64,000 nt of DNA, taken from sequence record NC_054911.1; one strand, written 5' to 3'. This DNA is from Escherichia phage ECO4. The position numbers and the translations under genes were made by a program. Below, in pieces: positions 34,815 to 39,589 of this stretch (within the stretch, counting starts at the first letter, position 1; each line of letters opens with the position of its first letter). The notes below the pieces were generated by a model. That model ran no database searches and was not told where the DNA came from. It was given only the letters and a program-made list of their open reading frames with translations.

Positions 34815-34818
34815 CAAT

Positions 34819-34848
34819 GGGGACCGAAAGGTCCCCATGTTTTTATTT
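34819..34848. terminator. bidirectional terminator between convergent gene 54 and the 96-aa ORF
   Basis: GGGGACC-GAAA-GGTCCCC followed by ATGTTTTTATTT on the + strand. Confidence 0.7.
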
Positions 34849-35133
34849 ACGGAATGAAATAAAAGCAGCAACTGAAGCAACAGAGGTTTCTTCAATATAA
34901 ACCTCAATTTTTATCGGAGCTTCTGACTCAAATTTACCTGTTACTACACCCTGAAAAATACTTTCAGTCTGTTCTGGCTTTGAAAAATTTTCAGAAGGAA
35001 AAATTCCGAACTTTTTATCTGTTCCAAAAATTTTGATAAATTCATCGTAAACTGCTTCATTGAAAGCGTTATCAGCGGGAATAACGCCTTCAACGACGAG
35101 TTCTTGACCTAAAAAGCGCAAAGAAGATTTCAT
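34843..35133 (-). CDS. hypothetical protein downstream of alt paralogues
   Basis: 96-aa ORF with GAGGA SD, driven by the duplicated early promoter cassette at 35141-35194. Confidence 0.7.
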   Translation of the reverse strand: MKSSLRFLGQELVVEGVIPADNAFNEAVYDEFIKIFGTDKKFGIFPSENFSKPEQTESIFQGVVTGKFESEAPIKIEVYIEETSVASVAAFISFRK

Positions 35134-35164: not shown

Positions 35165-35194
35165 ACTATAACACAACACGAGGGACTTGTAAAC
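35165..35194 (-). promoter_or_regulatory. T4 early-type promoter (GTTTAC -35, TATAGT -10), copy A of the 54-bp cassette
   Basis: Coding-strand GTTTAC, 18 nt, TATAGT, then leader and GAGGA SD to ATG 35133. Confidence 0.6.
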
Positions 35195-37251
35195 TACATT
35201 TTGAACTTTTTAGACATTCCGTTGATGTTAACCAAAGAAGCTAAGATTTGAGAAACTTCGTTTTCCTCTTCTTTTGATTCTTCTACAAGGAATTGATTAA
35301 ATCCAGCCATTGGACGAACTTCACCAGTTTCCATTAGATGGTCGCCATCATATACTGATTCTTCTAATTGTTCAGAAGGAGGAACGATTGTACCTTCGAT
35401 TAGATACTTGTTATAAGCAGTTTCTTTCATAAAGTAAGTACTTACTTTATTAATCTTCAGTAAAATTCCACGTGGTAGAATAACTTCAGCTTCTGATGGA
35501 AATCCTGACAAATGACCTGGAACGATAACTTTAACTCGTTCAGCTCCTTTAATTACCATACCCACGCTAGTTTCAGCATCTTCATTAGCATATGTAGAAT
35601 GACTACCCATATGCATCAAATCTTCTGCATCAACGGAACCTTCTCCTTCACCAGAAAATACTGCTCCGGAATCATCTAAGGCCATATAATTTTTACCATA
35701 CTCACCAAAGATATTTGGTTTAAGTGATGTAGATACGAAGTTCTTGAAATAGAACATTTTATTTTCAATGTTATGACGCAAAGTTTTAAAAGTAACTTCT
35801 TGTCCACGGTAAAGTGTAGTTCCTGGAGGAAGAACTGAACCTTTAGCAAACGCAGAATCCATAGTCTCGATGTGCTTAATAGCGCGCTCCATGTATTCTT
35901 CACGTGTAGAATCAGGTTTACCTAAAAGGAATGAGTTCATTTCAACATACGAATCTGCACAATAATCTTCAATTACATCAGATTCAGCCTGAGTCAATCC
36001 TTTTGGAGTTACTTCAGTGCTTGCATATTCATACGCCTGAGCAGCGGATTCATCAATTAATTTATAAATGCCATTCATGACAAATTGAATAATAGCTGTC
36101 TTTTCATCTGGCGTAGCTTTAGAACCTTTAACTAAATCATTGACAATTTTCTTAATAACATCAAAGCTATTAGAAATATTAATGTCAGCAAGATCGCTTA
36201 AAATTTTATCAGTTTTATAATCAAAAAATTCTTTATTCTTTAAATATTCTTGAGAACTTTGATATGTTATATCGCTCTGCAACTTGATAGATGGATCACG
36301 TAAACGTGCATGGGCTAATGCAATATGATTTCGGAAGCTTTCTAGTTCATAATCACTAGATTTAAAACGAGAAGCACTCCTCATACCACCGATAGCTCCT
36401 TTGCCGAAGTTTGAACCAATCTGAATAACGCCAGAGTTCATTGGTCCTTCTGCTTTATATACCGGAACTTTAGATTCAAACTCTTGATATTTCTTAGCAG
36501 CAAAGCTATCACCCTGAAGTGAAGCATCAACAGTAGAATATTGAGCTTGTGCTGCTAATCGACGACTAATTTTAGTTTTCTGAATAACAGCTTGATCCGT
36601 ACGCTTATCATTTTCTAAAGCAATAGAAGCAGCAACTGCGACAGCTTTAGGAACAGCATTACCTGTTTTAACGTCTACATAAACATCACCGACTTTCGAT
36701 TCAACTTTTGTGAATAACTCAGTTGAAATAGGAGGTACACCTGGAATGTCTTCTAAATTGGCATTTTTACGGTAAACCATAATATATGCATATTTCTTAT
36801 CATAGTCCCAGATTTCCTTTAAAAGAACATATCGACCTGCTCCTTTAGTACGTACTAAACGGTCAGCAATAACTTGCATTTGACGAGCAGCGCCATTTGT
36901 TTTACTTTTTAGTACGCGGAATAGGCATGCATCAATTTTATACTGTTTCATTGTTTGAAGAGCAGTATCAAAAACCGCATTAATGACACCAATTGGATTT
37001 CCACCCAAATTTTTAAGCTTAACTAACGATAATTTCTCATTAACACCTATCATTACGATATGCATCATTTTGTCGCCTGGCTTAACGTTTTTATTCGTAT
37101 CACCGCCAGAGGTGTATGTACAAAATCGAAATCCAGGAAGAACGCTTTCTTCACCGGCTTGAATAGCAAAAATTTGAGGTATTTTATGCTTAGGATTTAA
37201 GTTAACAACCGGCGCCGAAGCGCCGTCAAATAATTCTGTAATAAGTTCCAT
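35194..37251 (-). CDS. Alt-family mono-ADP-ribosyltransferase paralogue (685 aa)
   Basis: N-terminus MELITELFDGASAPVVNLNP shared with the upstream paralogue; C-terminal ART signature (Arg in TLYRGQ, STS in FVSTSL, catalytic EAE in EAEVILPRG). Confidence 0.85.
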   Translation of the reverse strand: MELITELFDGASAPVVNLNPKHKIPQIFAIQAGEESVLPGFRFCTYTSGGDTNKNVKPGDKMMHIVMIGVNEKLSLVKLKNLGGNPIGVINAVFDTALQTMKQYKIDACLFRVLKSKTNGAARQMQVIADRLVRTKGAGRYVLLKEIWDYDKKYAYIMVYRKNANLEDIPGVPPISTELFTKVESKVGDVYVDVKTGNAVPKAVAVAASIALENDKRTDQAVIQKTKISRRLAAQAQYSTVDASLQGDSFAAKKYQEFESKVPVYKAEGPMNSGVIQIGSNFGKGAIGGMRSASRFKSSDYELESFRNHIALAHARLRDPSIKLQSDITYQSSQEYLKNKEFFDYKTDKILSDLADINISNSFDVIKKIVNDLVKGSKATPDEKTAIIQFVMNGIYKLIDESAAQAYEYASTEVTPKGLTQAESDVIEDYCADSYVEMNSFLLGKPDSTREEYMERAIKHIETMDSAFAKGSVLPPGTTLYRGQEVTFKTLRHNIENKMFYFKNFVSTSLKPNIFGEYGKNYMALDDSGAVFSGEGEGSVDAEDLMHMGSHSTYANEDAETSVGMVIKGAERVKVIVPGHLSGFPSEAEVILPRGILLKINKVSTYFMKETAYNKYLIEGTIVPPSEQLEESVYDGDHLMETGEVRPMAGFNQFLVEESKEEENEVSQILASLVNINGMSKKFKM

Positions 37252-37254
37252 GAT

Positions 37255-39351
37255 TTATCCTTGAACGAACTTGTAAGGCATGTTTGTAATATCTATGCAA
37301 GACGCAATAATTCCAAGAGATGATTCTACTTTCTGTTTAACATTTGATGAAACAAATGATGCAAAGTCAACTCTATCTTCTATTTCAATATCACCTGTCA
37401 TTGCAACTACTTCACCGGTTTCCATTAAATGGTCTCCGTCATAGATTACCGATTCGGTGAGCTCTTCCGTGGTCATAACTTCAGCTTGAATGAGTTTTGT
37501 ATTATTAGATGTTGTTCCGTCATTATTAGAAGCATCAGTTATTTTATTAACTTTGACCATCAATCCACGCGGTAGAATAACTTCAGCTTCTGTTGCTATT
37601 CCGAGACTTCCTGGATATACAACATTAACTTTATGAGCTCCATCAATTGCCCATCCTATTTGAACTTTAACGTATTCAGGATTTTCTTTATACGCTCTTA
37701 TTTCGTTTGGATTAATAGTTATTCCTTCTTCATTTTTATCAACTGTTAATTCATTGCGAGCTTCTGGTTCTAAAAGACCAATACCAGCATGTGTGATTCC
37801 AAAACGTCCAAAAATGATAGGAGTTAAAGAAGTAGATACAAAATTTCTGAAGTAGAACACTTTATTTTTAACTAACGCTTCATATATAGGAGCAGTCATA
37901 CTTTGAGCACGATAAACTGTAATGCCTTCTGGTATACGGTCACCATTTTCAAAAGCTGAATCTAAGTTATTTATAGCAGATTCAATTTCTTTTTCACTCA
38001 TTACATCATATCGTTCTGGATTGTAACGACCTAAAAGAAGATTATTGATGTCAGTATATCCTGAACCGCAATATTCTCTAATGCCACGCTTTTGTGATGG
38101 AGTATATTTAGAACCATCGCGGGCAATAGTAATATCAATCATTGGACCAGCACCAATTCCAGAAAAACTGTAAATCATTCGTTTGAGGAATTTAGTTTTT
38201 GCTGCGTTCCAGGAATTTTTAGTTATTTCTTCCCAGACTTCATCTGGTTGTCCTTTACGATTTTTATTATGATTAGCAAGCCATTTATCTTTATAATCTT
38301 CAAAGAATTGATTTACAGCTGCTGCGTATTTCTCTAAACATTTTATTGAAGTAGTTGGTTCATTTTTAATTGCATTAAAAATTACTTCTTTAATTTTTTC
38401 TGAAACTTCACCGACTTGACTCATTGGAAAGAATTTATAATCATAGTGAAGTTCATCTGCCGTTCCTTCAGCAATAATTTTTGCTGCCTTTGTTTTAGAA
38501 GCTAATGAATTAATTCCAATTTTCATTTCTTCTGCTTCGGGAATTAAAGGTGCAGTAGCTGGTTTATTAAAATTAGCTGCTGTAGATTCATACTTCTGGA
38601 ATAATTCACTTTCAAATCTAGAAGATTCCAATGACTGACTTTGTGCAATTGCTCTACGGGAAATTTTAACTTTAACGATTACGGCTTGGTCAGAACGTTT
38701 ATCATTTTCTTGTGCAATAGATGCAGCAATTGCCTCATTTTTGGTTACTTGAGCTCCAGTATCTTTATTGATATAAACATCACCGACCTTCGATTCAACT
38801 TTAGTAAAAAGCTCGGTGCTAATTTCTGGAACTCCTGGAATGTCTTCTAGTGATACATTTTTACGATGTATAAGAATATATGCATACTTTTTATCGTAAT
38901 CCCAGAGTTCCTTAAGAAGGACGTATCTGCCACCTGAACGACTGCGGATGAGTCTATCAGCAATAAGTTGAATTTGTCGAGCTTGACCGGCGGTTTTAGA
39001 CTTAAGAATACGAAGCATGCAGGCATCAATTTTATATTGACGCATTGTTTGCATTGCAACAGTAAAAACTGAATTGATATAATTAATCGGGCTTGGACCA
39101 AGACCTTTTAATTTAGCAATTGAACCTTTAGCAGTTAATGTAAAAGGAACAATGTGCATCATTTTATCGCCCATCTTTAAATCACGATTAGTATCACCTC
39201 CAGATGTATAGGTACATAAACGAAAGCCTGGTTGTTCAATTGCATCATCAACATGAACTGAAAAAATTTGTGGTATTTTCTTCTTTGGATTTAAGTTTGT
39301 AATCGGAAGAGTAGTATCTTCGTCAAATAATTCTGTAATGAGTTCCATCAT
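37255..39351 (-). CDS. alt: Alt ADP-ribosyltransferase (698 aa), packaged internal head protein
   Basis: N-terminus MMELITELFDEDTTLPITNLNP; R-S-E ART motifs (TVYRAQ, FVSTSL, EAEVILPRG); late TATAAATA promoter upstream; position next to gene 30. Confidence 0.88.
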   Translation of the reverse strand: MMELITELFDEDTTLPITNLNPKKKIPQIFSVHVDDAIEQPGFRLCTYTSGGDTNRDLKMGDKMMHIVPFTLTAKGSIAKLKGLGPSPINYINSVFTVAMQTMRQYKIDACMLRILKSKTAGQARQIQLIADRLIRSRSGGRYVLLKELWDYDKKYAYILIHRKNVSLEDIPGVPEISTELFTKVESKVGDVYINKDTGAQVTKNEAIAASIAQENDKRSDQAVIVKVKISRRAIAQSQSLESSRFESELFQKYESTAANFNKPATAPLIPEAEEMKIGINSLASKTKAAKIIAEGTADELHYDYKFFPMSQVGEVSEKIKEVIFNAIKNEPTTSIKCLEKYAAAVNQFFEDYKDKWLANHNKNRKGQPDEVWEEITKNSWNAAKTKFLKRMIYSFSGIGAGPMIDITIARDGSKYTPSQKRGIREYCGSGYTDINNLLLGRYNPERYDVMSEKEIESAINNLDSAFENGDRIPEGITVYRAQSMTAPIYEALVKNKVFYFRNFVSTSLTPIIFGRFGITHAGIGLLEPEARNELTVDKNEEGITINPNEIRAYKENPEYVKVQIGWAIDGAHKVNVVYPGSLGIATEAEVILPRGLMVKVNKITDASNNDGTTSNNTKLIQAEVMTTEELTESVIYDGDHLMETGEVVAMTGDIEIEDRVDFASFVSSNVKQKVESSLGIIASCIDITNMPYKFVQG

Positions 39352-39371: not shown

Positions 39372-39379
39372 TATTTATA
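39372..39379 (-). promoter_or_regulatory. T4 late promoter TATAAATA for alt
   Basis: Exact TATAAATA on the coding strand 20 nt before the alt ATG, just after a UUCG hairpin. Confidence 0.65.
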
Positions 39380-39384
39380 AAATT

Positions 39385-39403
39385 AAAGGCCCGAAGGCCT
39401 TTA
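39385..39403 (-). terminator. UUCG hairpin between the 62-aa ORF and the alt late promoter
   Basis: Coding-strand AAAGGCC-TTCG-GGCCTTT followed by AATTTTATAAATA. Confidence 0.5.
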
Positions 39404-39589
39404 ATAATCTATTGGTAATAGAGTACGATATATTTCAAACTTTGGACCTTTTTCATAAGCATCAAAAGTTTCTGTGAATTTATTATAAGCATATGCATCT
39501 ATAAATTCAATCATGATTTGCGATACAGAAGTAGAAACATCTCCACCTTCTTTTTGAGCCACGACAATTGTTTCTAAGTAAGCTTTCAT
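39401..39589 (-). CDS. hypothetical small protein coupled to the DNA ligase gene
   Basis: 62-aa ORF, start overlaps gp30 stop; followed by a UUCG-type hairpin. Confidence 0.6.
   Translation of the reverse strand: MKAYLETIVVAQKEGGDVSTSVSQIMIEFIDAYAYNKFTETFDAYEKGPKFEIYRTLLPIDY

Follow-up and report, generated by a model that had tools for sequence, protein, structure and literature searches.

Among the phage enzymes that are injected with the DNA to reprogram the host, Alt is the textbook case. In Escherichia phage ECO4 (NC_054911.1), of which a stretch of 64,000 nucleotides (nt), hereafter the window, was analyzed, two long genes of the Alt type lie side by side on the minus strand: alt (copy 1) and alt.-2, also called Alt2 (copy 2). 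We consider it probable (roughly 0.78) that this locus is a two-gene late operon of Tequatrovirus, alt-alt2, encoding two full-length Alt-family ADP-ribosyltransferases (ARTs) that would be packaged, trimmed by gp21 and injected, and would likely act on different substrates.

The pair is a known, annotated feature of T-even phages and is not a discovery, contrary to the novelty implied by an earlier note on this DNA. RefSeq lists alt and alt.-2 in RB14 and uses the name alt.-2 in RB51 as well, and the BASEL records label the pair 'ADP-ribosyltransferase Alt' and 'Alt2'. The second gene of RB14 and RB51, the Alt2 of Bas35, Bas38 and Bas40, and copy 2 are the same gene (685 amino acids (aa), 98-99% identity, same position, 3-nt junction). 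Tandem duplicates were noted by Nolan et al. in 2006, who listed T4 alt.-1/alt.-2 and open reading frames (ORFs) of 44RR as paralogous alt duplications, one of those in 44RR being full-length (PMC1524935). A literature search on the function of Alt2 found no paper, and the genome paper on UFV-AREG1 does not discuss alt. What we add here is that the small T4 genes are better read as the remnant of a deletion, that Alt2 keeps the gp21 sites, the catalytic residues and the constraint of an Alt protein, that homology between the middles of the two proteins is not detectable, and that the gene in the first slot is a mosaic.

Organization of the alt-alt2 locus

The two ORFs run on the minus strand from 39351 to 37255 (698 aa from the first ATG) and from 37251 to 35194 (685 aa), where the earlier note had placed them, and in this AT-rich genome ORFs of such length cannot be chance products. 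The length given before for copy 2 stands, and the 698 aa given for copy 1 applies only from the first ATG. A GAGG lies 5 nt from the second ATG but merely 2 nt from the first, and the RefSeq annotation of RB14 alt is 697 aa, so the second ATG (39348), which starts a 697-aa protein with MELITELFD, is the likely start. The products of the two genes are clear paralogues (41% identity, BLASTP E=1e-160). Over the alt stretch the window is 99-99.9% identical to the Yersinia phages PYps32T and PYps47T and to RB14, RB51 and RB68, and Shigella phage Sf23 encodes a protein 100% identical to that of copy 2. The synteny of the pair is kept, with DNA ligase (gene 30) and alt.1 on one side, alt.-3 and gene 54 on the other, and a strand opposite to that of the baseplate genes. 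The two genes and the predicted parts of their products are listed below.

37255..39348, minus strand: copy 1, alt, 697 aa from the second ATG (maximal ORF start 39351)
aa 1-6, minus strand: copy 1, N-terminal propeptide (predicted)
aa 7-238, 39330..38635, minus strand: copy 1, basic N-domain (predicted)
aa 239-415, 38634..38104, minus strand: copy 1, helical middle module of class A (predicted)
aa 416-632, 38103..37453, minus strand: copy 1, ART domain with R480, S505/S507 and E587/E589 (predicted)
aa 633-697, 37452..37258, minus strand: copy 1, acidic C-terminal propeptide (predicted)
35194..37251, minus strand: copy 2, alt.-2 or Alt2, 685 aa (ORF)
aa 1-6, minus strand: copy 2, N-terminal propeptide (predicted)
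aa 7-238, 37233..36538, minus strand: copy 2, basic N-domain (predicted)
aa 239-415, 36537..36007, minus strand: copy 2, helical middle module of class B (predicted)
aa 416-631, 36006..35359, minus strand: copy 2, ART domain with R482, S507/S509 and E587/E589 (predicted)
aa 632-685, 35358..35197, minus strand: copy 2, acidic C-terminal propeptide (predicted)

Family membership and catalytic residues

By their N-domain and by their C-terminal domain, both copies belong to the T-even Alt family (PHROG 802; PF26846 with PF03496). PHROG 802 matches each protein over its full length, and PF03496 (ADPrib_exo_Tox) scores 129.9 bits on copy 1 and 71.5 bits on copy 2 against a gathering cutoff of 23.4. 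PF26846 (Tevenvirinae_ADPRT) is among the precomputed matches of near-identical proteins, namely a 98%-identical one (P0001) and the 697-aa and 273-aa products of a metagenomic relative (L012). Common to both copies is a build of four parts: a short N-propeptide, a basic alpha/beta N-domain (Tevenvirinae_ADPRT; isoelectric point (pI) about 9.5), a helical middle, and an ART domain of the C3/VIP2 type followed by an acidic disordered tail. The AF2 models of the two copies show the same order of domains, with the tail disordered from residue ~629 in copy 2 and ~644 in copy 1.

The motifs quoted in the earlier note were all found. MELITELFD is present in both copies, TVYRAQ and TLYRGQ provide R480 of copy 1 and R482 of copy 2, FVSTSL corresponds to S505-T-S507 and S507-T-S509, respectively, and EAEVILPRG gives E587-A-E589 in both. 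In alignments with 21 close and 12 genus-level-divergent homologues, R482, S507, S509, E587 and E589 are invariant, and in C3cer and BECa the catalytic Arg and the Q/E-x-E stand at the aligned positions. The ART domain shows the fold of the R-S-E clade (C3/VIP2/Vis type), with a helical lobe at its N-terminus and the E-x-E in the ARTT loop. Mutation of the corresponding Glu in T4 Alt abolishes activity (PMC11404850). The absence of catalytic residues from one copy had been named beforehand as a finding that would speak against two Alt-type ARTs; on alignment, R, S-T-S and E-x-E are present in both. Together with the 41% identity and the PF03496 scores, these residues bear out the proposal of Alt-type paralogues, and both genes apparently encode catalytically competent ADP-ribosyltransferases.

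Two further observations concern the proteins themselves. The published inactive variant is called Alt E577A (PMC11404850); in NP_049811 (L001:5455-7503) the E-M-E is E574/E576 and residue 577 is Val, and the residue numbering of that paper appears to be offset by one. A GNAT acyltransferase fold was considered for the N-domain and rejected, the combination of fold similarity and acetyl-CoA-binding motif A (Q/R-x-x-G-x-G/A) not being found. A sequence search for a solved structure of Alt returned none.

Predicted processing by gp21 and packaging

T4 Alt is a core protein present at about 40 copies per head (PMC9958956; PMC11404850) and is ejected with the DNA (PMC9958956). Mass spectrometry of T4 Alt placed the gp21 cuts after ITE-6 and LTE-619, which removes 6 N-terminal and 63 C-terminal residues (PMC5694885) and leaves a mature protein of 68.2 kDa (PMC5694885; PMC9026906); mapping the two sites onto T4 Alt gave 68.2 kDa, as published. 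At the aligned positions, gp21 motifs (and motifs only) are found in both copies, ITE-6 in each, LTE-632 in copy 1 and LEE-631 in copy 2. Across genera E6 is invariant and E631 nearly so. The predicted mature products have 626 aa and 70.1 kDa for copy 1 and 625 aa and 69.1 kDa for copy 2. The region past the C-terminal site is disordered in both models and acidic (pI 4.2-4.6), and the C-terminal tail has Y-D-G-D...E-x-G-E as an invariant block and ends in K-F. Because both gp21 sites lie near the termini, the N-domain would stay on the mature enzyme. The N-terminal ~220 aa had been taken before as a likely capsid-targeting part processed by the protease; the processing is not upheld, since T4 gp21 removes short termini only and both sites are kept in both copies.

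We infer that Alt2 is packaged and processed like Alt, the best argument being that Alt2 has kept all of the features described above. Both proteins would enter the prohead core, and gp21 would cut them after ITE-6 and after LTE-632 (Alt) or LEE-631 (Alt2). Both would then be ejected with the DNA and carry out NAD+-dependent mono-ADP-ribosylation of arginines of host proteins in the first moments of infection. RNA polymerase alpha is among the host proteins modified by NAD-dependent mono-ADP-ribosylation in the T-even Alt family; for the two copies such activity would follow from the intact motifs and the fold.

Alternatively, copy 2 might be an active ART that is not packaged and acts late in the producing cell, like a late counterpart of ModA/ModB. 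The literature searched contains no proteomic evidence of Alt2 in the virion, which agrees with such a role. We nevertheless regard it as quite improbable, because copy 2 retains a full Tevenvirinae_ADPRT N-domain (67% identity), ITE-6/LEE-631 and the tail block YDGD..E.GE...KF, which have no obvious use in a cytoplasmic enzyme, and because it would be cotranscribed with alt from the late promoter. It is very improbable that copy 2 is mainly a structural or core component of the prohead with vestigial enzymatic activity. In its favor, Alt is described as a core protein, and no other part is conserved as well as the N-domain. Against it, none of the catalytic and NAD-site residues varies between genera, purifying selection acts on the ART domain, and assembly does not require Alt (PMC9958956).

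Divergence of the middle modules

Identity between copy 1 and copy 2 is ~67% over the N-terminal ~238 aa, ~36% over the ART core and ~40% over the tail. Over the middle (~175 aa) it is ~23%, and this part is essentially unalignable. A shared N-terminus and differing middles had both been recognized in the earlier note, whose estimate of ~220 aa for the shared part was somewhat short. When 120 full-length homologues were clustered at 60% identity, the N-domain formed essentially one cluster, the ART core and the tail 4 or 5, and the middle 9. Profile-profile comparison (hhalign) linked the middle of copy 1 with that of T4 Alt (99.3%, E=1e-20) and the middle of copy 2 with a JS10-type lineage of another genus (99.9%, E=6e-36). 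Across the classes A and B, hhalign detected nothing (<1%) with shallow profiles (Neff about 1.3), and a search with the middle of copy 2 alone against 1.84 billion representatives gave no match. Recent gene conversion between the copies was rejected, as the longest exact run that they share is 22 nt, at the codons of EAEVIL, and third-position identity is ~50%. We infer that copy 2 is a separate, older paralogue lineage.

Since the middles have no detectable homology, Alt and Alt2 most likely have different host substrates. Against Mokosh type I, one Alt allele cannot stand in for another (preprint 10.1101/2025.11.20.689424), which indicates that Alt variants are functionally non-equivalent; bas37_0033, judged from the numbering of Bas40, is probably the gene of the first slot. 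Non-homologous middles and alleles that do not replace one another make different host targets of Alt and Alt2 plausible, and these might plausibly include components of defence or toxin-antitoxin systems.

The T4 remnant and the spread of the pair

In reference T4, alt (682 aa) is followed by alt.-1 (61 aa) and alt.-2 (67 aa). The annotation explains the two small ORFs by an old duplication that took in only the first part of alt, and Nolan et al. (2006) also describe a duplication of that part. By DNA alignment, the alt.-1/alt.-2 segment matches copy 2 nt 1-348 at 95% identity, except that an A-run is one base shorter, and then continues directly with the final 11 nt of copy 2. The join coincides with a sequence that copy 2 contains twice.

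36904..36912, minus strand: upstream 9-bp direct repeat CTAAAAAGT, copy 2 nt 340-348, 5' breakpoint of the 1,699-bp deletion in T4
35205..35213, minus strand: downstream 9-bp direct repeat CTAAAAAGT, copy 2 nt 2039-2047, 3' breakpoint of the T4-type deletion

Because of this position of the join, the T4 arrangement points to a 1,699-bp deletion between the 9-bp repeats plus a 1-nt frameshift, and not to a partial duplication. T4 alt.-1/alt.-2 are thus better read as the microhomology-mediated deletion remnant of a full-length paralogue, Alt2; they share the origin of copy 2, but the gene has been destroyed in T4. On copy 2 the PHROG families of the two T4 fragments reach 138 and 131 bits, on copy 1 only 78 and 70.

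A 121-nt probe over the T4 junction matched in full in 91 of 497 phage records. In the remaining records, T2, RB27 and RB51 among them, the match stops exactly at the repeat. A protein of the copy 2 type (at least 90% identity) is present in about 400 phage records, a count in which some phages figure in both GenBank and RefSeq. From these numbers the intact pair is the common state and T4 the exception. A full-length paralogue in T4, which the earlier note had thought might weaken its case, does not exist there; T4 has only the 61-aa and 67-aa remnant.

Constraint on Alt2 and its disruption

Both genes are under strong purifying selection. In comparisons with RB14, Bas35, Bas38 and Bas40, whose orthologues of copy 2 are all intact 685-aa ORFs, dN/dS was 0.012-0.068 for copy 2 (dS up to 0.23) and 0.028-0.069 for copy 1. 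A second, independent disruption of Alt2 is seen in a metagenomic Tequatrovirus lineage (16 contigs; L012:2683-4748, L013:2683-4748), in which an 8-bp tandem duplication, AGTTTGAA, at nt 770 splits the gene exactly at the domain boundary: a 273-aa ORF holds the N-domain, and a 415-aa ORF, restarting at Met271, holds the ART part. Alt2 seems conditionally dispensable, having been lost in laboratory T4 and its close relatives and split in another lineage.

Could copy 2 be a redundant duplicate that has no distinct role and is drifting toward loss? It has been lost or broken at least twice, by the T4-type deletion and by the 8-bp duplication, and alt itself is non-essential in T4 (PMC9026906). 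Even so we find this unlikely, because copy 2 is as constrained as copy 1 and intact in about 400 records, because the duplication dates far back (gene conversion is absent and third positions have diverged), and because copy 2 has relatives in other genera (JS10-type) and a middle of a different class.

Expression signals

Late transcription of both genes would start from a TATAAATA motif upstream of alt, and the two would be translated as a coupled pair. The signals on which this proposal is based are as follows.

39372..39379, minus strand: T4-type late promoter motif TATAAATA (exact match; putative function from the T4 late-promoter consensus)
37968..37975, minus strand: second exact TATAAATA, inside copy 1 (codons A-I-N-N of the window allele), 717 nt upstream of the copy 2 ATG
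37258..37262, minus strand: AAGGA, candidate Shine-Dalgarno sequence for copy 2, within the final codons of copy 1; the ATG at 37251 follows after 6 nt (TAAATC)

The late promoter claimed before for the upstream copy is present at the level of an exact motif, TATAAATA at 39379..39372, 21 nt upstream of the first ATG of copy 1. The window holds 17 matches to TATAAATA compared to 9 expected by chance, and the match at 37968..37975 might serve Alt2 as an internal late promoter specific to this allele, or might be due to chance. Within 700 nt of copy 2 no separate promoter motif was found for it, nor was a terminator-like site found between copy 1 and copy 2. At the junction, CAAGGATAAATCATG, the AAGGA (37262..37258) precedes and abuts the TAA stop of copy 1 (37257..37255), and the intergenic gap is 3 nt; the junction sequence is the same in T4. 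Coupling as described in the earlier note therefore agrees with the junction, and the order it gave, TAA and then AAGGA, is reversed.

Several points weigh against reading the locus as a late operon for two packaged and injected enzymes with different substrates. The literature searched contained no virion proteomics of two-copy phages and no direct evidence of packaging, cleavage, injection or activity of Alt2. The promoter, the Shine-Dalgarno sequence and the coupling have been recognized as motifs. Both middles are predicted to be all-helical and to have 170-176 aa (AF2 models), and since they are helical and of similar length and the profiles are shallow, they may be remote homologues. Finally, any distinct function of Alt2 is not essential, because T4 and the 91 related records lack it and a second lineage carries it split.

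Relation to known systems

T4 Alt (NP_049811), a head-packaged NAD+--arginine ADP-ribosyltransferase, resembles copy 1 in locus, MELITELFD start, gp21 sites, class of middle and catalytic motifs, and differs from copy 2, with which it shares 41% identity overall and a non-homologous middle. The R-S-E ART toxins (Vis, C3, the enzymatic components of iota, CDTa and VIP2, and Certhrax) are the arginine-specific comparison group of Alt. Unlike them, Alt has a phage-specific N-domain, a helical module and prohead-protease propeptides, and it is delivered by DNA ejection and not by secretion or a binary-toxin B component. T4 ModA and ModB belong, like Alt, to the R-S-E ART clade and occur in the same phage group (PMC5512222); in contrast to Alt they have about 200 aa, are early and unpackaged, lack the Tevenvirinae_ADPRT N-domain and are encoded elsewhere in the genome.

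The Aeromonas phages 44RR (ORF187c) and L9-6 carry two full-length Alt genes side by side next to baseplate genes (PMC1524935 for 44RR). These tandem duplicates belong to another genus (Biquartavirus) and are about 33% identical. The two adjacent Alt genes of L9-6 were seen in L004:1-2226. In the Krischvirus Brandy (L008:223-3177), a full-length Alt gene is followed by a 274-aa ORF to which the C-terminal region of the query matched. Alt genes have multiplied repeatedly among the genera of the Straboviridae.

Neighboring features

Three sites and one gene flanking the pair were also recorded.

39383..39405, minus strand: hairpin with a UUCG loop and a U tract behind it, probably the terminator of the gene 30/alt.1 unit upstream, directly before the alt late promoter (fold)
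35165..35193, minus strand: early-type promoter-like site, TTTACA-17-TATAGT with TG, right after the copy 2 stop and ahead of alt.-3 (consensus match only)
34843..35133, minus strand: alt.-3 (96 aa, DUF5498), downstream neighbor, not an ART (ORF)
34817..34838, strand not assigned: GC-rich bidirectional hairpin terminator separating alt.-3 from the convergent gene 54; no strong terminator lies closer downstream of alt-alt2

The hairpin at 39383..39405 folds with -14.5 kcal/mol (z=-3.8), and 0 of 200 shuffles were as stable. Given the early-type promoter-like site ahead of it, alt.-3 is probably outside the late alt-alt2 unit. In T4, mutations that extend the C-terminus of alt.-3 escape the CmdTAC defence (PMC11618068). 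The 62-aa product of alt.1 (39401-39589, minus strand; also L012:345-533) has a precomputed Pfam match to PF24647 'Phage_blade', a name one would not expect on so small an ORF in the interval from the ligase gene to alt. Rfam and tRNA scans of the window gave no matches.

Copy 1 as a mosaic allele and the meaning of the second gene

Copy 1 is 15 aa longer than T4 Alt and is ~99% identical to it over aa 1-246 and ~94% identical over the last ~80 residues, with ~35% identity in the middle and ~64% in the ART core. Nucleotide identity to T4 falls from at least 0.95 to 0.3-0.8 near codon 240 and is back at 0.93 or more near codon 660. The slot-1 cassette of the window occurs in 342 records at 80% identity or more; identity between it and the T4-type cassette is 44-46% (tblastn). 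Copy 1 would thus be an allelic variant of T4 Alt with a middle module of the same class. The conserved ends of copy 1 could serve as recombination anchors for swapping the middle-plus-ART cassette.

Bas35 combines a T4-type gene in slot 1 with an intact Alt2, and therefore the two slots vary independently. A wider proposal, which we put forward tentatively and hold to be doubtful, is that the alt locus is a two-slot cassette system of injected effectors. The conserved N-domain and propeptides would be handles for packaging and processing as well as recombination anchors, flanking exchangeable recognition and ART modules. Slot 1 would have at least two alleles, slot 2 (Alt2) would hold a non-homologous module that is gained and lost independently, and the pair of ARTs that a phage injects would be particular to its strain and fit the set of defence or toxin-antitoxin systems found in its hosts. 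If this were true, Alt2 would neutralize a host factor beyond the reach of T4 Alt, and work based on T4 would have overlooked half of the injected ARTs.

Almost all knowledge of Alt was gained with laboratory T4, where the second gene is lost, while about 400 of about 500 records keep an intact Alt2, strongly constrained and with a different putative module for substrate recognition. As Alt alleles differ in their effect against Mokosh, Alt2 is an obvious candidate for a second injected enzyme of counter-defence or host takeover.

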